Of a stretch of 64,000 nt of DNA, positions 10,060-54,368 are shown piece by piece (within the stretch, counting starts at the first letter, position 1; each line of letters starts with the position of its first letter). The translations under genes and the position numbers were made by a program. This stretch comes from an uncultured Chitinophagaceae bacterium (GTDB lineage: Bacteria > Bacteroidota > Ignavibacteria > UBA10030 > UBA8401): assembly GCA_964409765.1 (NCBI GenBank), contig CAYPEM010000007.1, positions 12,033 through 76,032 of the forward strand. Reading direction: 5' to 3'. The notes under the pieces are model-generated. The model worked only from the letters and a program-made list of their open reading frames with translations. It made no database searches and had not been told where the DNA came from.

Positions 10060-11445
10060 ATGACAATCTTATTAGAAACGTACAAAAAAGTCTTTAATCT
10101 CCTACATGATTTCGCATTTTTGGTAAATGGTTCTGCTGACATTATTGACGCTAATTCAAAAGTCATTCAACGGGGCTTCACCCATGCAAATCTCATCGAA
10201 TGTTTTTCAGACGAAAGTAAAAATCAGTTCAAAAGATCGTTACAGGATAAACCAGTTACCTTCAGAACTGATTTCTTTTTTTCTCTGAAGGATCATCTGT
10301 TCACTGAAGTAAATATTACGCCATTGAGTGTGGATCAAGAAGCGGTTTTTCTTGTCGTTGTAAAAGATATTACAGTTCAGCACGATAAAGAATTAGAACT
10401 CCTTCGCTTTTCTGAAGTGATTCATCGCACTGTAAACCCTATCCAAATAACCAACCCTGAAGGCAAAATAATTTATGTAAATCCCGCCTATGTGAATATA
10501 AGCGGATATTCCAGAGAAGAATTAATCGGAAAAAATCCAAGTGTGTTAAGCAGCGGTAAACATACAAGCGATTTTTGGAAAAAGGTCTGGGCAAAGATTC
10601 TTACCGGACAGCAATGGGTAGGGCAAATACAAAATAAACGGAAGTCAGGTGAGTTGTTCCATAGCGAACTTGTTATTTCGCCTATCGTTGATGAACAGAA
10701 AAAAGTAATTGGATTTATGGGAGCCCACAGAGATATCACTGAGCAGAAGAATCTAGAACGCCAGGTTGTTCGTTCACAGAAGATGGAAACATTTGGCACC
10801 CTTGCAGCGGGAATTGCTCATGAAGTAGGAAATCCATTGACTTCAATTTCTTCGCTCGTTCAATTAGTCCAACGACAATCCAGTGATGACTTTGTTCAAG
10901 AGAAACTTGAATTGGTAAAAAATCAGATCAATCGAATATCAAAAATTTTACGGGAACTCGTTGATTTTTCCAGACCATCTACTCATGATATCAAAGATGT
11001 CAGCGTCAATTTGATCTTGCGAGAGGCTCTTAACATCGTACAATACGGTAAAAAATCCCGTGCAACAGTATTTGATGTTGCATTGGAAGAGAACCTTCAA
11101 ATGGTTCATGCTGTACCGGACCAACTTCTGCAGGTATATTTGAATATCTTAATGAATGCTGTAGATGCATGCGAAGGAAAGCGAGGACAGATATTTGTTA
11201 CAAGTGCAGCACGGGGGGATTGTGTTGAAGCGGTCTTCAAGGATAATGGTTCGGGAATCTCAGAGAAAAATTTAGGGAAATTATTTGATCCATTCTTTAC
11301 AACTAAAGAAGTCGGCAAAGGTACAGGGCTTGGTCTTTGGGTGAGTTTAGGGATCGTGAGGAATTTTGGAGGAGACATTTTTGTCGAAAGTGAAGAGGGG
11401 AAAAGCACAACGTTTACAGTACGATTACCGGTAAAGGGAGCATAA
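10060..11445 (+). CDS. Cytoplasmic PAS-domain sensor histidine kinase (NtrB/AtoS-like)
   Basis: No transmembrane segment. PAS region, H-box AHEVGNPL, N-box NILMNAVDA, G-boxes DNGSGI and GTGLGL. Confidence 0.9.
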   Translation: MTILLETYKKVFNLLHDFAFLVNGSADIIDANSKVIQRGFTHANLIECFSDESKNQFKRSLQDKPVTFRTDFFFSLKDHLFTEVNITPLSVDQEAVFLVVVKDITVQHDKELELLRFSEVIHRTVNPIQITNPEGKIIYVNPAYVNISGYSREELIGKNPSVLSSGKHTSDFWKKVWAKILTGQQWVGQIQNKRKSGELFHSELVISPIVDEQKKVIGFMGAHRDITEQKNLERQVVRSQKMETFGTLAAGIAHEVGNPLTSISSLVQLVQRQSSDDFVQEKLELVKNQINRISKILRELVDFSRPSTHDIKDVSVNLILREALNIVQYGKKSRATVFDVALEENLQMVHAVPDQLLQVYLNILMNAVDACEGKRGQIFVTSAARGDCVEAVFKDNGSGISEKNLGKLFDPFFTTKEVGKGTGLGLWVSLGIVRNFGGDIFVESEEGKSTTFTVRLPVKGA

Positions 11446-12807
11446 ATGAAAAAAAAGATCTTGGTAGTTGATGATGAAGAGATTATTCGTGATTCGATTA
11501 GTTTTGTACTTGAAAAAGAAGGATATACCGTTCGAAAAGCAGAGAATGGCGCTGTTGCGTTAAAGATCTTGAATGAAGGATCGTTCGATCTGGTTATTAC
11601 TGATATTGAAATGCCGGAACTCCGCGGACCGGAATTATTGGAGAGGATTTCGGAACGATTTCCTCAGACCTTCGTCATTATCATCACGGCATATGCTTCA
11701 GTTGAAACCGCAATTGCGGCCATCCGAAAAGGTGCATACGATTATCTCCTAAAGCCGATCGAATTTGATGATCTTATTTTCCGTATAAAAAAATTATTTG
11801 ATTACAAAGAACTCGTCCTTGAAAATACACTTCTCCGACAAGAAGTGAACCGAAAATTCGATTTTTCATCCATCATAGGTCAAAGTGAAGCGATGAAAAA
11901 GATATTTGCAGACATTCAAAAAGTTGCGCCTACCGAAGGAACTGTGTTAATCACCGGAAAGAGCGGAACGGGGAAAGAACTCGTTGCTCGGGCAATACAT
12001 ACCCACAGCAGAAGAAGTAATAAACGGTTTATAGCGATCAACTGCGGAGCAATAGTAGAAACATTGTTCGAAAGCGAATTATTTGGACATAAAAAGGGTT
12101 CATTTACTGGTGCAACCAATGATAAAGACGGAGTTTTAAAAGCAGCGGAAGGAGGTACATTATTATTGGATGAAATTAGTGAAATGCCTCTTCAGCTACA
12201 GCCAAAATTATTGCGCGCGTTGGAACAACGAGAAATTACTCCTGTCGGCAGTAATGATGTGATTAATGTTAATGTACGGATAGTAGCAGCAACCAATAGA
12301 AATCTTAAAGATGAAATTGCAAAAGGAAAATTTCGTGAAGATCTGTTCTATCGTTTAAATGTTGTCGAAATCCATCTTCCGGAATTAAGTGAACGGTCTG
12401 AAGATATTCCATTGTTGGTAAATTCATTTATCACTAAATTCCGTGGTGAAATGGGAAAAGCGATCAAAGGGATATCTAATCAGGCCATGAGTGCGTTAGT
12501 CAATCACCAATGGAAAGGCCAGATCCGAGAGCTGCAAAATATCGTAGAACGCGCGATGATCTTTTGTGAAGCCGAAATGATTGATGTTCAGCATCTTCCC
12601 GAAGAATTACAAGCAAGTGCTCAGCTTTCTGTTATAGACTATTCTTCTCAATCTTTAAAAGATGCTGTTCATATGTTTGAACGTCGTTATATAGAACAAA
12701 AATTGAAACACCACAATGGAGATAAGGATAGAGTTGCAAAAGATCTGGGACTTAGTCTCTCAACATTGTATCGCAAATTTGAGGAACTTGGTATTCCTCT
12801 TAAATGA
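11446..12807 (+). CDS. Sigma-54-dependent response regulator (NtrC family)
   Basis: REC domain (VVDDEE .. ITDIEMP), AAA+ domain (GKSGTGKE, GSFTGA loop, LLLDEI), C-terminal Fis-type HTH. Directly abuts the kinase gene. Confidence 0.9.
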   Translation: MKKKILVVDDEEIIRDSISFVLEKEGYTVRKAENGAVALKILNEGSFDLVITDIEMPELRGPELLERISERFPQTFVIIITAYASVETAIAAIRKGAYDYLLKPIEFDDLIFRIKKLFDYKELVLENTLLRQEVNRKFDFSSIIGQSEAMKKIFADIQKVAPTEGTVLITGKSGTGKELVARAIHTHSRRSNKRFIAINCGAIVETLFESELFGHKKGSFTGATNDKDGVLKAAEGGTLLLDEISEMPLQLQPKLLRALEQREITPVGSNDVINVNVRIVAATNRNLKDEIAKGKFREDLFYRLNVVEIHLPELSERSEDIPLLVNSFITKFRGEMGKAIKGISNQAMSALVNHQWKGQIRELQNIVERAMIFCEAEMIDVQHLPEELQASAQLSVIDYSSQSLKDAVHMFERRYIEQKLKHHNGDKDRVAKDLGLSLSTLYRKFEELGIPLK

Positions 12808-48839: not shown

Positions 48840-49043
48840 ATGAATTCAGTTGAAAAAACAAATTCTATTTGCCCGAAATGTAATTCGACATTTGAATGCG
48901 GTATTTCCACAGGAAATAATTCTTGCTGGTGTTTTGCTCATCAAGCACTTTTATCGTCCAAGTATGGTGATCGATGTTTTTGTGAACACTGTCTTACAGA
49001 GTTAATAGAACAACAAAATGTGCGGGAAGAGAAATTAAACTAA
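48840..49043 (+). CDS. Cysteine-rich CWC-family small protein
   Basis: CPKCNSTFEC...SCWCF...CFCEHC pattern; 67 aa. Confidence 0.7.
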   Translation: MNSVEKTNSICPKCNSTFECGISTGNNSCWCFAHQALLSSKYGDRCFCEHCLTELIEQQNVREEKLN

Positions 49044-49059
49044 TTGTTATTTGATACCT

Positions 49060-49425
49060 ATGAAAAAAGCTCTTGTTGTTGACGATTCTGAGGCGAACAG
49101 AATGCTTCTAGGTGCATTTCTCACCAAATTAAATCTATCGGTTGAGTATGCTGAAGATGGGGATGAAGCGGTTCATAAATTTCTTCAACTGCAGCCCGAC
49201 GTTGTCTTTATCGATCAAATTATGCCCACGAAAAATGGGGCAATTGCTTTGCGAGAGATGAAAAACAACAATGAAGACTTCATTGGATTTTTGATGTCCT
49301 CATATACAGACCGGGACCAAATAAAAAAGATTGTTGAAGAATCTCATGCGCAAGAATTTGTCCCAAAACCGATTGTTTTTGAAACCATACAAATATTGAT
49401 GAAGAAGTATCGTATCATTCCATAA
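49060..49425 (+). CDS. Single-domain CheY-like response regulator (REC0)
   Basis: VVDDS, phosphoacceptor VFIDQIMP, LMSS, and FVPKP (Lys-Pro with an aromatic residue at -3). Confidence 0.85.
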   Translation: MKKALVVDDSEANRMLLGAFLTKLNLSVEYAEDGDEAVHKFLQLQPDVVFIDQIMPTKNGAIALREMKNNNEDFIGFLMSSYTDRDQIKKIVEESHAQEFVPKPIVFETIQILMKKYRIIP

Positions 49426-49545: not shown

Positions 49546-49911
49546 ATGAAAAAAGCACTAATTGTTGATGATTCTGCATATAACAGAACTTTGCTGAATG
49601 CCATTCTTCGGAAAAAAGGGTTGATAGTTGAAACCTCTGATAATGGGGAAGATGCAGTGACAAAATTCACCGCCGGACAACCCGATATCGTTTTTTTGGA
49701 TTATATTATGCCAAAAAAATCAGGAATTGAAGCACTGGCAGAGATGAAAAAAATTAAACCGGAATTTATCGGCATTATGCTGACTTCAATTTCCGGAGCT
49801 GAGGATGTTCAAGCAGCAAAAGCAGCTGGAGCAAATGGTTATATATTAAAACCGTATGAAGCAGAAAAAATCTATGAAGTGTTAAGAAAACATCATCTCA
49901 TTGAAGAATAA
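49546..49911 (+). CDS. Single-domain CheY-like response regulator (REC1)
   Basis: IVDDS, VFLDYIMP, MLTS and GYILKPY motifs. Confidence 0.9.
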   Translation: MKKALIVDDSAYNRTLLNAILRKKGLIVETSDNGEDAVTKFTAGQPDIVFLDYIMPKKSGIEALAEMKKIKPEFIGIMLTSISGAEDVQAAKAAGANGYILKPYEAEKIYEVLRKHHLIEE

Positions 49912-50240
49912 TGGTACCCAATTACGCTTGTCCAACTTGCAATAAAAAATATTTCGATCCGCCTTTTCTCTGCACCGATTGCGGAACGGAAATGGGATGG
50001 AAGTGTTCCTCATGTAACCACGGAAACCCATTGGTGTACCGACGGTGCGGCAAATGCGCAATGCCAATTCCAATGGTGATTGCAGCGATGATCAAAGAAG
50101 GAAAACAATTACGTATCATTAATATCCCTCAATACAGCGAAAGTGATATCAGCGAGTTGCTGGAAGAGGGTGAACGCCTCGTAGCCAAAAAAGAAATTCA
50201 AACTCTCACCCAAGCGGATCTCGATAAACTTTTCGAATAG
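49911..50240 (+). CDS. Double-zinc-ribbon protein with C-terminal TQADLDKLFE tail (DZR1)
   Basis: Four CxxC pairs in the first ~50 aa. TAATG overlap with REC1, and the stop lies 3 nt before the ATPase1 start. Confidence 0.7.
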   Translation: MVPNYACPTCNKKYFDPPFLCTDCGTEMGWKCSSCNHGNPLVYRRCGKCAMPIPMVIAAMIKEGKQLRIINIPQYSESDISELLEEGERLVAKKEIQTLTQADLDKLFE

Positions 50241-50243
50241 CCT

Positions 50244-51947
50244 ATGTTTAACCGCGAAGATCTTCAATTCCGAGATTACTGTATCACCAATAAAATCCTT
50301 TCAGAAGAACGCTGGAAACAGTTTGTTGATACCGCCAATAATTACGGGATGAACGAAGGTTTTTCTAAAGCGCTCATTGAATTCAAATTTTTTACTCCGG
50401 AAGAACTCGTCAGTCATATTGGAAAAGCATTTACGCTTCCGGTGATGAAATTATATGCTGAGACAAACTCTGCTCCGCATGAGATACTCTCTATCACATT
50501 CATACGAAAACATCGGGTGATTCCGATGTTCCTGTTCGGGAATGAACTGACTATTGCATTCATTGATCCGCCTTATAAATCTGTTTTGGATGAACTCGCA
50601 AAACTCACACAAAAAAAGATTGTTCCAGTGATCTCTGCGGCACCGGATTTTGATGAGACCTTGAAAATTCAACAAGGCGGGTTTGACGAATTAAAAAGGA
50701 TCGCAAGTGCCATCGACATTCAAAAATTTGATGTCGTTCGTACGGGTGAAAAAGAAGTAGATCGTTTGGAAAAGATTGGTGAGTTTCCTCCGATGATAGA
50801 ATTGGTTGATGAGATATTCCTAAGGGCAATAAAAATTGGGGCTAGCGATATCCACGTTGAACCATTTGAGGAGGAAATACGACTCCGTTTTCGTTTGGAT
50901 GGTGTATTGCAGCGTGTTGCCTCGTTTCCTCATAAGATTGCAGAAGGTATGGCCGCGGTGATCAAAACCAAAGCGGACATGGATATCTTTGAAAAGAAGA
51001 AACCACAAGATGGTCGTATCTCGCTGACACTTGAAACACGATCATTTGATCTTCGGGTAAATTCACTTCCGACAGTGAATGGTGAAAAAATTGTGCTGCG
51101 GATTCTGAATAAAACATCCATCAATAAAAAGATCAATGACCTTGGACTTGCTACGCACAACCTTGCGATGCTGGAGCATTTGCTGACCCAGCCTAATGGA
51201 TTATTGCTTGTTACAGGCCCGACCGGAAGTGGAAAAAGTACGACATTGTATGCGGCAGTAAATCATATTAAAAATGTTGAAAAGAATATTGTAACGGTAG
51301 AAAATCCTGTTGAATACCTGGTTGACACAGTCAATCAAGTGAATGTCGATCCCGATCGCGATCTTACTTTTGCAAACGCATTGCGAGCTATTTTGCGTCA
51401 AGATCCGGATGTTGCGTTGGTGGGAGAAATTCGCGATACCGAAACCGGAATTATTGCAACGGAAGCAGCCTTAACCGGACATTTAGTGTTAAGCACACTC
51501 CATACCAATGATGCAGTGGGTGCAATTCCCCGGTTGATCAATATGGGTGTTCCGTCATATTGGCTTGCTCCGGCTTTGATCGGAGTTCTTGCACAACGAT
51601 TGGTACGGAAGATCTGCGAGCATTGCAAAGATGAATATCAGCCGACTGATGAAGTATTTTACAAGGCAGGATTAAGCAGTCTTTCCGGTCGAGCTCCATT
51701 TTTCCGCGGCACAGGATGTAAAAAATGTAATTTCCAGGGATTTAGCGGACGACTTGCAATCCATGAAGTATTTATTGTCAATGAAGAAATTCAAAACCTG
51801 ATTTATCAAAACGAAACCACTACAAAGATCCGTGATGCAGCAATAAAAAGCGGATTCCGTGATCTTCGTTTTGACGGTCTGAAAAAAGTAATAGCTGGCC
51901 TGACGACTTTAGAAGAGATTCACCGGGTAACCCGTTCAACGTTGTAA
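50244..51947 (+). CDS. GspE/PilB-family secretion-type ATPase (paralog 1, all catalytic boxes intact)
   Basis: T2SSE N-domain, Walker A GPTGSGKST, Asp box TVENPVEY, Walker B ALVGEIRD, His box TGHLVLSTLHTNDA, tetracysteine CEHC..CKKC. Confidence 0.92.
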   Translation: MFNREDLQFRDYCITNKILSEERWKQFVDTANNYGMNEGFSKALIEFKFFTPEELVSHIGKAFTLPVMKLYAETNSAPHEILSITFIRKHRVIPMFLFGNELTIAFIDPPYKSVLDELAKLTQKKIVPVISAAPDFDETLKIQQGGFDELKRIASAIDIQKFDVVRTGEKEVDRLEKIGEFPPMIELVDEIFLRAIKIGASDIHVEPFEEEIRLRFRLDGVLQRVASFPHKIAEGMAAVIKTKADMDIFEKKKPQDGRISLTLETRSFDLRVNSLPTVNGEKIVLRILNKTSINKKINDLGLATHNLAMLEHLLTQPNGLLLVTGPTGSGKSTTLYAAVNHIKNVEKNIVTVENPVEYLVDTVNQVNVDPDRDLTFANALRAILRQDPDVALVGEIRDTETGIIATEAALTGHLVLSTLHTNDAVGAIPRLINMGVPSYWLAPALIGVLAQRLVRKICEHCKDEYQPTDEVFYKAGLSSLSGRAPFFRGTGCKKCNFQGFSGRLAIHEVFIVNEEIQNLIYQNETTTKIRDAAIKSGFRDLRFDGLKKVIAGLTTLEEIHRVTRSTL

Positions 51948-51963
51948 TTATTGTGATCATATT

Positions 51964-52353
51964 ATGAAAATTGAAGATGTTTCTGTATTAGTTGTCGACG
52001 ACTCCGATCATATTCGGACTTTGTTTGCGATGACGCTAAAAAAAATGGGAATCAAAAATGTGCATTATGCTGCAGATGGTGCAGAGGGTCTACTCCGATT
52101 CAATAATGATAAACCAACCATTACATTTTTGGATAATATGCTGCCAAAACTTTCAGGTATGGAAGTGTTGAAAGAGATACGAGCAGTAAAATCCGATGCG
52201 ATTGTCGTCATTGTCTCAGCGGTATCAAGCATCGAAGTAGTTCAGGAAGCGAAAAGGAGAGGGGCGAGCTATTATCTTGTGAAACCATACATGCCATCAA
52301 AAATTGTTGAAATCATACAAAAGTTATTGACCCTTGAAGGGAGTGCAATATGA
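51964..52353 (+). CDS. Single-domain CheY-like response regulator (REC2)
   Basis: VVDDSD, TFLDNMLP, IVSA and SYYLVKPY motifs. Confidence 0.9.
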   Translation: MKIEDVSVLVVDDSDHIRTLFAMTLKKMGIKNVHYAADGAEGLLRFNNDKPTITFLDNMLPKLSGMEVLKEIRAVKSDAIVVIVSAVSSIEVVQEAKRRGASYYLVKPYMPSKIVEIIQKLLTLEGSAI

Positions 52354-52670
52354 TATGTACTTCATGTGGAAATGATAATCCACGAACAACACCCGAATGC
52401 ATCAGTTGTGGAAACAAATTAACGGTGATCCGCTGCAAATGCGGTTTCTTCAATTCATTAATGGATTCGTACTGCGGATCCTGCGGTAAGCAATTGATGA
52501 AATCAAATACGATATCGCGTACGCAGCGGTTTGAATCGATCTCGACAATAGCATCACCATTTACCGAGCAGGAATTAATGCGCATCGTTGAAGTGAATCA
52601 GATGCAAAATCATCTGGAACAAAACACCAACATGGTGTCACAAAATGATATTGATAAACTTTTTGAGTAA
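52350..52670 (+). CDS. Double-zinc-ribbon protein with C-terminal SQNDIDKLFE tail (DZR2)
   Basis: CTSC, CISC, CKC and CGSC pairs. ATGA overlap with REC2, and the stop lies 3 nt before the ATPase2 start. Confidence 0.7.
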   Translation: MICTSCGNDNPRTTPECISCGNKLTVIRCKCGFFNSLMDSYCGSCGKQLMKSNTISRTQRFESISTIASPFTEQELMRIVEVNQMQNHLEQNTNMVSQNDIDKLFE

Positions 52671-52673
52671 GTT

Positions 52674-54368
52674 ATGATCAGAGATGAAGATGTTCGACTA
52701 TCAAAATTCCTCTTTACCAAAGGATATATCGATAAGTTAAAGTTTGATAAGTTCCACAGGATCATGAATGAACCTGATGGCAAACAATGTGTTGAAGTAT
52801 TAATAGATGCAATGGGGGTAAATGACGAAATTGTCGCAACGGCAATCTCGGAAGAATTCAAGATACCCTATGTCAACCTCTCCTCTTCAATAATCACTCT
52901 CAATAGTCCATCCCTAAAAGATGAATTCCTAAAAAAATACCAGGCGCTTCCCATCATTCGCAGCGGTGTGGAACTTACAGTCGCATTCATAAATCCGCCG
53001 TATAAGGATGTTGTCGATGAAATGCGTCGTGATTCAAAAGTATTCGTTGTTCCGGTTGCTGTTAGACGCTCTGCGTTTGATGCGATAACTAAAAAAGTTC
53101 ATGTTGAGGAAGTTGATGAGTATCAACAAATACCATCAAAGTTTCAGCTGGATATGATCGATACCCGTAAGCGATCGAAGGAAAAAATAAATGAACTAAT
53201 GAAGTCCGGGAAACTGCCCAATGCCGATGTATTGATCGATGAGATCCTCATTACCGCGATCAAAAATGGTGCTACGGATATTTATTTTGAACCGATGGAA
53301 CAGGAATTTCGCGTACGGTATAATATCGACAGCGTTCTTGAACATGCAGTGTCGTTACCAAAAGAAATGACCGAAGCGTTATGCAATGTTATGCGGTCCC
53401 GCGGCAGTCTTAATATGTTTGAAAAAAAGAAACCTCAAGATGGACGGTATTCGTCAAATTACGGCAAATTCCATTTTGACATGCGCGTTAGCACACTACC
53501 GACTGTTGAGGGGGAACGATTTTCAGTTCGAATCCTAAAAAAGAATAACAGAGCTGTTGATATTAATGATATTGGTCTCTCACCGGAGAATTTGTCACTG
53601 GTTCGTTATCTGCTCAATCGTCCTCGCGGATTGCTCGTTATAGCCGGGCCGTCTGCCGCGGGTAAAACAACGACCGTCTACGGATGTATGAATGAACTGA
53701 AGGATTCTCAAAAAAACATCATTACCGTTGAAAATCCTGTGGAGTACCGTCTTGAATTTGCAAGCCAAGTCCAGGTGGATGTTGATCAGAAAATGGATTA
53801 TGCATCTTCAATGAGAGCGGTGCTTCGGCAACATCCCGATTTGATCTTCCTTGGAGAAATTCGAGATGCTGAGGCTGGAAGTGCAGCTGCAGAAGCAGCG
53901 CTGACGGGAACAATGGTTGTAACAACAATTCTTTCCAGTGATGCGCTGTCATGCATTCCCCGAATGACAAATTTTGGAATTCCACCGTCATGGCTGGCTC
54001 AAACATTAAACGGAATCATCTATCAGCAATTAGTTCGTAAAATTTGCAATCATTGCCGAGAAAGTTATAAACCGACAAAGCATATGTTAAATGCTGCCGG
54101 GTTGAATCAATTGGAGGATTCAATTTTATTGTACCGCGGCAGCGGCTGTGAAGTGTGCGGTGGAGATGGATATTTGGGAAGAACGGCAATCCATGAGATT
54201 TTAGTTGTCGATGAAGATCTCAAAGATTTGATCTTTCATCAAGCATCACCCGTTAAAGTGAAAGAAGTTGCTACCAAAAAAGGTTTTGAAACCATCCGGT
54301 TTGATGCGGTAAAAAAACTTGTTTCAGGTGTCATTGCACTGGAAGAATATCTGCGAGTACTTGGTTAA
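52674..54368 (+). CDS. GspE/PilB-family ATPase paralog 2 with degenerate His box
   Basis: Walker A GPSAAGKTT, TVENPVEY, FLGEIRD, and CNHC..CEVC. TGTMVVTTILSSDA replaces the His box. Confidence 0.9.
   Translation: MIRDEDVRLSKFLFTKGYIDKLKFDKFHRIMNEPDGKQCVEVLIDAMGVNDEIVATAISEEFKIPYVNLSSSIITLNSPSLKDEFLKKYQALPIIRSGVELTVAFINPPYKDVVDEMRRDSKVFVVPVAVRRSAFDAITKKVHVEEVDEYQQIPSKFQLDMIDTRKRSKEKINELMKSGKLPNADVLIDEILITAIKNGATDIYFEPMEQEFRVRYNIDSVLEHAVSLPKEMTEALCNVMRSRGSLNMFEKKKPQDGRYSSNYGKFHFDMRVSTLPTVEGERFSVRILKKNNRAVDINDIGLSPENLSLVRYLLNRPRGLLVIAGPSAAGKTTTVYGCMNELKDSQKNIITVENPVEYRLEFASQVQVDVDQKMDYASSMRAVLRQHPDLIFLGEIRDAEAGSAAAEAALTGTMVVTTILSSDALSCIPRMTNFGIPPSWLAQTLNGIIYQQLVRKICNHCRESYKPTKHMLNAAGLNQLEDSILLYRGSGCEVCGGDGYLGRTAIHEILVVDEDLKDLIFHQASPVKVKEVATKKGFETIRFDAVKKLVSGVIALEEYLRVLG

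Follow-up and report, generated by a model that had tools for sequence, protein, structure and literature searches.

A candidate CheY-docking tail on zinc-ribbon proteins encoded between stand-alone receivers and PilB/GspE-like ATPases

Gene content of the receiver, zinc-ribbon and ATPase operon

The stretch of DNA analyzed here, which we call the window, comprises 64,000 nucleotides (nt) of contig CAYPEM010000007.1 from an uncultured Chitinophagaceae bacterium (assembly GCA_964409765.1), and our subject is the C-terminal tail of two small double zinc-ribbon (DZR) proteins encoded in it, DZR1 and DZR2, as a putative docking peptide for CheY-like receivers (REC). According to the list of open reading frames (ORFs), both genes belong to a packed operon of seven genes on the plus strand in the order REC-A, REC-B, DZR1, ATPase1, REC-C, DZR2 and ATPase2, and the gene of a WYL-type regulator comes next after ATPase2. 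Three of the genes encode stand-alone CheY-like receivers, namely REC-A (49051..49425, 124 amino acids (aa), Pfam Response_reg E=6.5e-18), REC-B (49546..49911, 121 aa, E=2.6e-25) and REC-C (51964..52353, 129 aa, E=1.1e-23). DZR1 (49911..50240, 109 aa) carries its Cys pairs at residues 7/10, 21/24, 32/35 and 46/49, and DZR2 (52350..52670, 106 aa) at 3/6, 17/20, 29/31 and 42/45. ATPase1 (50244..51947, 567 aa) is a PilB/GspE-like secretion ATPase matching Pfam T2SSE (E=3.4e-127) as well as MshEN, and ATPase2 (52674..54368, 564 aa, T2SSE E=5.5e-97) is its paralog.

The sequence-only reading of this DNA had placed each DZR gene directly 3' of a stand-alone receiver gene and overlapping it, and this was found to be the case for both. 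The TAA stop codon of REC-B (49909-49911) overlaps the DZR1 start at 49911 by 1 nt (TAATG), and the stop codon of REC-C (52351-52353) lies within a 4-nt ATGA overlap with DZR2, which starts at 52350. Judged from their sequences, REC-B/DZR1 and REC-C/DZR2 are translationally coupled through these overlapping genes. Downstream, 3 nt separate the DZR stop codon from the ATPase start for both ATPases.

DZR1 and DZR2 are approximately 30% identical. Both carry four CxxC-type pairs and score 19.6 and 23.9 bits, respectively, against the Pfam DZR model PF12773, below its cut-off of 27.3, and the same model is listed for many of their relatives in precomputed Pfam annotations. Their C-terminal half lies outside every Pfam and NCBIfam model, and there the translated ORFs show DZR1 to end in ...EIQTLTQADLDKLFE and DZR2 in ...NTNMVSQNDIDKLFE. 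Translation thus bore out that both zinc-ribbon proteins end in the peptide claimed for them, LTQADLDKLFE in DZR1 (50205..50237, residues 99-109) and VSQNDIDKLFE in DZR2 (52635..52667, residues 96-106), which we propose as receiver-docking peptides. The positions originally assigned to the two peptides, 50208-50237 and 52638-52667, correctly cover TQADLDKLFE and SQNDIDKLFE and leave the preceding L (50205) and V (52635) outside. The tail had further been taken as the sole strongly conserved segment outside the Cys-rich N-termini, which calls for correction, as a second motif aligns between the paralogs and throughout the family (PQYSESDISELLE in DZR1, SPFTEQELMRIVE in DZR2). In DZR1 this internal motif, QYSESDISELL (50130..50162, residues 74-84), is a second and weaker FliM-like amphipathic motif, and FTEQELMRIV of DZR2 (52560..52589, residues 71-80) aligns with it; in a gap-free alignment of the close homologs of both proteins, PQY[ST]ExxIxELLE (DZR1) corresponds to xF[ST]E[QE]ELMxI (DZR2). 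The internal motif has the hydrophobic spacing of the FliM peptide without its Q and D, and could be a second, weaker receiver site or an ATPase contact.

An AlphaFold2 model of DZR2, computed from an 87-sequence alignment, showed confidently predicted ribbons at residues 1-50 (predicted local distance difference test, pLDDT, ~90), a linker of low confidence (pLDDT ~57), a helix at residues 73-93 over the internal motif and a short terminal helix at residues 98-104. The predicted template modelling score (pTM) was 0.42, indicating no fixed overall arrangement, and the tail was placed nowhere else with confidence. This is the look that should be expected of a tethered docking peptide. A Foldseek search of the model against the Protein Data Bank (PDB) returned single RanBP2-type zinc fingers only and nothing at E<0.5, and phmmer found no match between the 26-residue tail, which is too short a query, and the PDB sequences.

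Conservation of the tail and its likeness to FliM and CheZ peptides

Close homologs, all of which came from uncultured Bacteroidota, numbered 13 for DZR1, including ten full-length orthologs with 67-95% identity, and 36 for DZR2. The pattern Q-x-[DE]-[IL]-D-[KST]-[LM]-F is nearly invariant within either set, and among 20 DZR2 orthologs the tail residues Q98, D100, I101, D102, K103, L104 and F105 as well as F71, E75, L76 and M77 of the internal motif are invariant. An exhaustive profile search for the family gave 2893 hits at E<=1e-3, the best 150 representatives of which (50%-identity clusters) were taken as a sample. By our own count 93 of these 150 carry the four CxxC pairs together with the tail, and about 90 share a length of 100-125 aa and a single architecture, consisting of the four CxxC pairs, a variable linker, the motif Q-[YLF]-[ST]-x-x-[ED]-[IL]-x-E-L-[LI], some 15-20 further residues and the tail, [LVI]-[ST]-Q-[DE]-[DE]-[ILV]-D-x-[LI]-F, which lies 0-12 residues from the C-terminus in nearly all of them. 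The expectation that homologs would conserve the tail was therefore confirmed, with about 90 clusters carrying it, far beyond the two paralogs. Across an alignment of 91 sequences that average 29% column identity, the tail has an invariant Q and F and a nearly invariant D and I/L, which makes it more than a product of chance. The named sources of family members are Bacteroidota, a Thermodesulfovibrio metagenome-assembled genome (MAG) and a deltaproteobacterial MAG, and by profile similarity DZR1 and DZR2 belong to a widespread, unnamed family.

The likeness of the tail to FliM's N-terminus and CheZ's C-terminus, which had been put forward earlier, was upheld when the Escherichia coli MG1655 sequences were consulted and when they were scored with a tail matrix. 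FliM begins with MGDSILSQAEIDALLN, its residues 5-15 reading ILSQAEIDALL, and the C-terminus of CheZ is VASQDQVDDLLDSLGF. The matrix was built solely from the 93 family tails, and its background consisted of approximately 2,700 ORFs of the loci examined, less 13 ORFs belonging to the family and one that is probably a second paralog of CheZ (L080). Its best window in FliM was precisely 5-15 ILSQAEIDALL with 16.5 bits, a score reached by about two unrelated ORFs among roughly 2,690, and its best window in CheZ was 199-209 VASQDQVDDLL with 7.3 bits, a score reached by about 1% of background ORFs. The N-terminal window of FliM and the C-terminal window of CheZ are the regions binding phosphorylated CheY (CheY-P; PMC7750401; PMC9126983). 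The contacts listed between CheY and FliM involve L6, Q8, I11, D12, L14 and residue 16 of FliM and A90, I95, A99, Y106, V108, K119 and K122 of CheY (PMC3774744 Table 3). When the sequences were aligned on the Q, the listed FliM contact residues coincided with near-invariant columns of the DZR tail and FliM L15 with its invariant F, and S7, A9, E10 and A13 of FliM, which are not listed as contacts, fell on more variable columns.

A scan of a genome collection with the pattern [LVIMF][ST]Q[DE]D[LIV]D[KNSR]LF returned, among the matches listed, mostly LeuD of Bradyrhizobium, a class of false positives, and CheZ, together with one DZR ortholog. Also among the matches listed were at least about 30 proteins from Alpha- and Betaproteobacteria, 170-310 aa in length, with the C-terminus ...GPQxxGxxSQDDIDKLF[GDE]. 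All four of the SQDDIDKLF[GDE]-ending proteins that we checked scored above the Pfam CheZ gathering threshold (4/4); the proteobacterial examples carry the catalytic motif FQD(L/I)TGQ, and the protein from the Fibrobacteres-Chlorobi-Bacteroidetes (FCB) group carries the variant VQDITSQQ. A CheZ from a Bacteroidetes/Chlorobi-group MAG (L067), encoded in a CheR-REC-REC-CheZ cluster, ends in SQDDIDKLFNQNS. Given this match of Pfam-verified CheZ C-termini, genuine CheY-P phosphatases carry exactly the DZR tail at their CheY-P-binding position, and the scan was of value as a positive control.

The motif was also seen in other arrangements. CheZ homologs of a Terasakiella MAG (L064) and of L097 contain two to five tandem copies of SQDDIDxLF with low-complexity linkers between them, which would allow several CheY-P to be captured simultaneously. 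The sequence RV[ST]Q[DE]DLDKLFDD lies inside a housekeeping protein of about 200 aa in L005, L011, L018 and, among the matches listed, at least about 50 further Bradyrhizobium and alphaproteobacterial loci; by sequence recognition only, we take this protein to be the small subunit of isopropylmalate dehydratase (LeuD). As the motif can arise inside folded proteins such as LeuD, pattern searches need a position filter. An internal MSQDDLDKLFD was found in the acidic linker of a protein from L017 that matches Pfam DUF2497, the PopZ family, and in look-alikes from L021, L031, L034, L037, L057, L066 and others (Roseibium, Stappia, Pseudovibrio). In L017-type proteins this motif might serve the polar recruitment of a CheY- or DivK-like receiver.

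Receivers and ATPases as candidate partners

REC-A, REC-B and REC-C all keep D57, T/S87 and K109, and the aromatic switch residue attributed to the three receivers was indeed present at the column of CheY Tyr106, as Y in REC-B and REC-C and as F in REC-A. REC-B displays D57, T87, Y106, L108, K109, K115 and K122, and REC-C displays D57, S87, Y106, V108, K109, K115 and K122. Both Lys122 and the Lys at 115 are conserved in the receivers of such gene modules. At the hydrophobic alpha4-beta5-alpha5 pocket, REC-A, REC-B and REC-C have I/V95 and A103, along with L108 in REC-B and V108 in REC-C. The best NCBIfam match of REC-B was CheY_Halo, below the cut-off of that model. The gene of REC-A shifts between module start and end across genomes, the ortholog in L003 lying after ATPase2.

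A metagenome scan with a family-specific pattern identified 120 loci, 69 of them with a clear ORF combining DZR and tail, and neighbors were counted with hidden Markov models made from the alignments of this analysis at loci with enough flanking sequence, one side branch being left out. A receiver gene was found directly upstream on the same strand in 42/47 loci, and a T2SSE ATPase gene directly downstream, 0-21 nt away, in 48/49 loci; REC and DZR genes of the relatives usually overlap by 1-4 nt. The complete six-gene module REC-DZR-ATPase-REC-DZR-ATPase recurs in contigs L001 and L003. Other relatives carry DZR-ATPase-REC (L125), a receiver fused to GGDEF (REC-GGDEF) followed by DZR, ATPase, CheX and REC (L126, L131), or a divergently transcribed histidine kinase and then REC-DZR-ATPase (L128, L129 and the P0228 contig). 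L127 encodes REC, DZR, a 65-aa ORF, a weak GAF/HATPase_c/REC protein and REC and has no secretion ATPase, and in L130 a DZR-tail protein adjoins a weak CheX-like ORF. As to the window itself, no kinase adjoins its module; the divergent gene beside the module in L128 and L129 is of the HATPase_c type.

Since gene order cannot decide the partner of the tail, we examined covariation in 55 unique REC-DZR pairs, applying the average-product correction to about 12 x 103 column pairs. A single pair stood out (z 4.7, the next pair reaching 2.8), linking the I/L/V position of the tail, which corresponds to FliM I11, to receiver residue 108 on beta5. Tail Leu occurred with Leu108 in 21/21 pairs distributed over several receiver sub-clades, tail Val paired with Ile or Met at 108, and tail Ile mostly with Val or Thr. 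Within the DZR2-type clade we observed a reciprocal swap, with tail Ile and Val108 in nine pairs and tail Val and Ile108 in four. No outlier emerged when the tail was analyzed in the same way against 352 ATPase columns, the highest z values (3.6, 3.6 and 3.6) forming a smooth series. Although suggestive only, this covariation would fit a tail that packs directly on the alpha4-beta5-alpha5 face.

ATPase1 has canonical Walker A, Asp box, Walker B, His box and tetracysteine motifs. ATPase2 keeps Walker A (GPSAAGKT) and Walker B and has both His-box histidines replaced, its His box reading TGTMVVTTILSSDA compared to TGHLVLSTLHTNDA in ATPase1. This loss is common to three orthologs, ATPase2 and the ATPases encoded at 10326-12020 of L001 and at 10326-12020 of L003, and ATPase2 may be either a pseudo-ATPase with a regulatory role or one component of a mixed hexamer. 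Both window ATPases pass the Pfam models T2SSE and MshEN and fall below the NCBIfam cut-offs for PilB and GspE (ATPase1 scoring 543.7 compared to 675.65 for PilB and 525.4 compared to 630.25 for GspE). Neither the scanned window ORFs nor the flanks of the relatives examined contained pilus or type II secretion genes.

The cyclic di-GMP (c-di-GMP) binding motif of MshEN domains is 24 residues long, RLGxx(L/V/I)(L/V/I)xxG(L/V/I)(L/V/I)xxxxLxxxLxxQ, and occurs twice in tandem (PMC5013675). Neither in strict nor in relaxed form was it present in the N-termini of the window ATPases (50244-50570 and 52674-53000), in both of which each motif has lost its two glycines and its glutamine. Control by c-di-GMP was considered for the window and rejected because of these degenerate motifs. 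Two relaxed copies were found only in 5/6 relatives with a GGDEF-fused upstream receiver and additionally in L125 (loci compared: L125, L126, L131, L143, L197, L207 and L233); in L126, the sixth relative of the GGDEF type, the ATPase gene call appears to start too late. The motif pair occurred in 0/41 ATPases with a stand-alone upstream receiver, those of the window included. The family thus seems to exist in a c-di-GMP flavor and a phosphorylation-only flavor.

Proposed role of the zinc-ribbon proteins

Our preferred reading, supported and as yet unproven, is that DZR1 and DZR2 are probably adaptors, which hold the upstream receiver by a CheY-docking tail and the downstream ATPase by the rest of the protein. 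The tail, [LV]-[ST]-Q-x-[DE]-[ILV]-D-x-[LI]-F, would be a CheY-docking motif of the kind found at FliM's N-terminus and CheZ's C-terminus, borne on a flexible linker. A kinase encoded outside the window would phosphorylate the upstream receiver (in some relatives a histidine kinase gene adjoins the module), and the tail would most likely bind the alpha4-beta5-alpha5 face of that receiver, REC-B in the case of DZR1 and REC-C in the case of DZR2, probably when the receiver is phosphorylated. The zinc ribbons, the internal amphipathic helix, or both, would most likely hold the DZR protein on the downstream hexameric ATPase, so that receiver phosphorylation would gate the activity or the location of the ATPase. 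In the GGDEF-fused relatives with intact MshEN, the adaptor could bring cyclase and receptor side by side. In the window, where the duplicated module has no cyclase and its MshEN motifs have decayed, control would be by phosphorylation alone.

Several observations weigh against such docking on the receivers. Lys119 of CheY, which forms a salt bridge with FliM Asp12, gives way to V, I or L in all module receivers, and hence the polar or electrostatic part of the interface would have to differ from that between CheY and FliM. REC-A combines the Phe at its Tyr106 column with a Pro at 108 and an insertion of one residue in alpha4; it may be unable to bind the tail, and may act as a competitor or antagonist. 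As a neighbor, the ATPase is no less constant than the receiver (48/49 vs 42/47), and gene order alone is therefore silent on which partner the tail binds. The covariation between the tail and receiver residue 108 reflects few independent events and can be inflated by relatedness. A Pfam scan of 29 window ORFs, the 20 largest outside the module among them, revealed no genes for pili, secretion or chemotaxis. The motif is also convergent inside unrelated proteins, for example the internal RVSQEDLDKLFDD of Bradyrhizobium LeuD. Finally, the side branch left out of the neighbor counts, formed by 13 high-G+C loci (L141, L154, L168, L176, L186, L189, L200, L213, L215, L229, L230, L231 and L250), combines ribbons with a tail that reads GVSQSEIDGLFENILDEE... 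and continues in an acidic extension, and is devoid of the internal motif. Its members are invariably flanked by RecN on one side and, on the other, by a GNAT acetyltransferase together with a DUF4388(PATAN)/DnaJ/TPR protein, and neither REC nor ATPase is found in their vicinity, showing that a ribbon-plus-tail protein can exist without either neighbor.

Other short motifs were compared with the tail. The consensus of beta-clamp-binding peptides is QL[SD]LF; this candidate, considered because the side branch adjoins RecN, was rejected since the distance from Q to F is five residues in the clamp motif and eight in the tail. The C-terminal peptide of FtsZ and tags of the ClpX/SspB type were rejected as well, their consensus sequences not fitting the DZR tail.

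One alternative is that DZR is an accessory subunit of the ATPase, in which case the tail, with or without the internal helix, would bind the ATPase itself, for example at its N-terminal GSPII/MshEN domain, and the receiver would act on the ATPase or on DZR by a different surface, the likeness to FliM and CheZ being that of a convergent short acidic amphipathic helix. In favor of this stand the ATPase gene as the most constant neighbor, always 0-21 nt downstream, the missing K119 and the recurrence of short acidic amphipathic motifs in the unrelated LeuD and PopZ-like proteins. However, receiver residue 108 covaries with the tail and no ATPase column stands out, L127 has the order REC-DZR-REC without a T2SSE ATPase, L130 has a DZR-tail protein next to a CheX-like gene, and the match to the FliM contacts spans six positions, which is more than mere composition, and we thus consider such a subunit unlikely. 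If the tail does bind the phosphorylated receiver, DZR could still act as a sink or sequestering factor, or tether the receiver for presentation to a phosphatase like CheX, and be no adaptor for the ATPase, so that receiver signaling would be tuned in the way the C-terminal peptide of CheZ raises the local concentration of CheY-P. An identical CheZ peptide does tether CheY-P for dephosphorylation (PMC7750401), CheX genes are present in the L126- and L131-type clusters, and the DZR-tail protein of L130 adjoins its CheX-like ORF and nothing else related. Yet DZR possesses neither the DxxxQ bundle of CheZ nor the ExxN motif of CheC/CheX, most clusters, including that of the window, contain no phosphatase gene, and the DZR gene lies almost universally 0-21 nt upstream of the ATPase gene, which speaks for a function linked to this ATPase, making a sink or tether quite unlikely.

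A further alternative is that the tail is an EIDALL-type motif for a MinD/FlhG-like ATPase, or an intramolecular structural helix without a partner. The EIDALL motif of FliM and FliY is discussed in papers on the flagellar regulator FlhG, and Schuhmacher et al. are said to have reported in 2015 that FlhG binds this motif directly; the AlphaFold2 model, for its part, shows the tail as a helix of moderate confidence. No MinD/FlhG-like gene was found in the window or the related loci examined, however, and a fixed intramolecular packing is opposed by the low pTM and the low-confidence linker. The polar Q and D at the surface are invariant over wide divergence, which points to an external partner, and we regard this alternative as very improbable. 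A role of DZR as a CheZ or CheC/CheX phosphatase was rejected, as it has no catalytic motif.

Among systems in which CheY docks on a peptide, CheZ resembles the DZR proteins in that its C-terminal helix (E. coli residues ~199-214; PF04344) places the motif at the extreme C-terminus behind a flexible linker and in that its partner gene is likewise a stand-alone CheY-like receiver next door. The C-termini SQDDIDKLF[GDE] of CheZ from Alphaproteobacteria and the FCB group are indistinguishable from DZR tails. On the other hand, CheZ is a four-helix bundle with DxxxQ, whereas DZR is a double zinc ribbon whose gene is coupled to that of a secretion-type ATPase. Neither DZR1 nor DZR2 matched the Pfam CheZ model at E<=0.1, 50 of their 106-109 aa being zinc ribbon, and lacking both the four-helix bundle and DxxxQ they are not phosphatases. 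They had no Pfam or NCBIfam match to CheC/CheX/FliY either (CheC-like fold, ExxN), CheX being a separate gene in some relatives. The EIDALL peptide of FliM and FliY is like the DZR tail at the conserved, CheY-contacting positions, and both would recruit CheY-P to a motor; in contrast, the peptide of FliM lies at the start of a flagellar C-ring protein and ends in Leu, while the DZR tail is C-terminal, ends in Phe and is found without flagellar genes, and the CheY partner of FliM has K119, which is not conserved in the receivers partnering DZR.

The same logic of a receiver acting through a small adaptor on a motor with an ATPase of the type IV pilus/type II secretion system (T2SS) family is known from archaeal CheY, CheF and the archaellum (PMC9126983), although CheF is archaeal, has no sequence kinship to the bacterial DZR and binds CheY near the phosphorylation site instead of at alpha4-alpha5. 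Bacterial PilB is controlled by a PilZ-FimX-PilB complex (PMC11656802), and the PATAN-CheY regulators PixG and PixE of Synechocystis bind PilB1/PilC (bioRxiv 10.1101/2021.06.11.447907; PMC11181946). Like the proposed DZR adaptors, such cofactors are small proteins or response regulators linking second-messenger or phosphorylation signals to a PilB-type ATPase, but they have no zinc ribbon and no docking peptide of the CheZ/FliM type, and the ATPases described here are not next to pilus genes. A 2024 review of PilB cofactors mentions no factor with a zinc ribbon or such a docking peptide. ATPases of the MshE type resemble the DZR-module relatives with REC-GGDEF, which keep two relaxed MshEN motifs, whereas the window ATPases have lost them. 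Our searches of the literature for a double zinc ribbon together with PilB, and for the motif strings, found nothing relevant; the peptide is of a known kind, and the literature searched yielded neither the protein carrying it nor the coupling of this protein to a PilB/GspE-like ATPase.

More tentatively, and with a chance we place somewhat below even, the family may represent a widespread unnamed module in which a zinc-ribbon adaptor of about 110 aa docks a receiver, or the receiver domain of REC-GGDEF, onto an orphan PilB/MshE-like ATPase. The flagellar switch and CheZ already provide known examples of CheY-docking peptides. If the adaptor reading is true, the module would be a bacterial counterpart of the archaeal link from CheY through CheF to the archaellum, and would provide a route from two-component phosphorylation to this motor family in bacteria without a known link of this kind. 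It would also define a new protein family, whose members number in the hundreds and come from Bacteroidota, Nitrospirota and high-G+C lineages, and the motif would be usable as a searchable signature for new CheY targets. The flavor combining REC-GGDEF with intact MshEN is a candidate for physically channeled c-di-GMP signaling, and would then be a device for local delivery of c-di-GMP to the MshEN receptor.

Two further observations concern the surroundings of the operon in the window. A Cys-rich CWC protein of 67 aa (Pfam PF14375) is encoded at 48840-49043, directly 5' of REC-A, and is absent from the relatives' loci examined. The sole other two-component pair among the window ORFs scanned is a PAS histidine kinase with an NtrC-type sigma-54 response regulator, encoded at 10060-12807.

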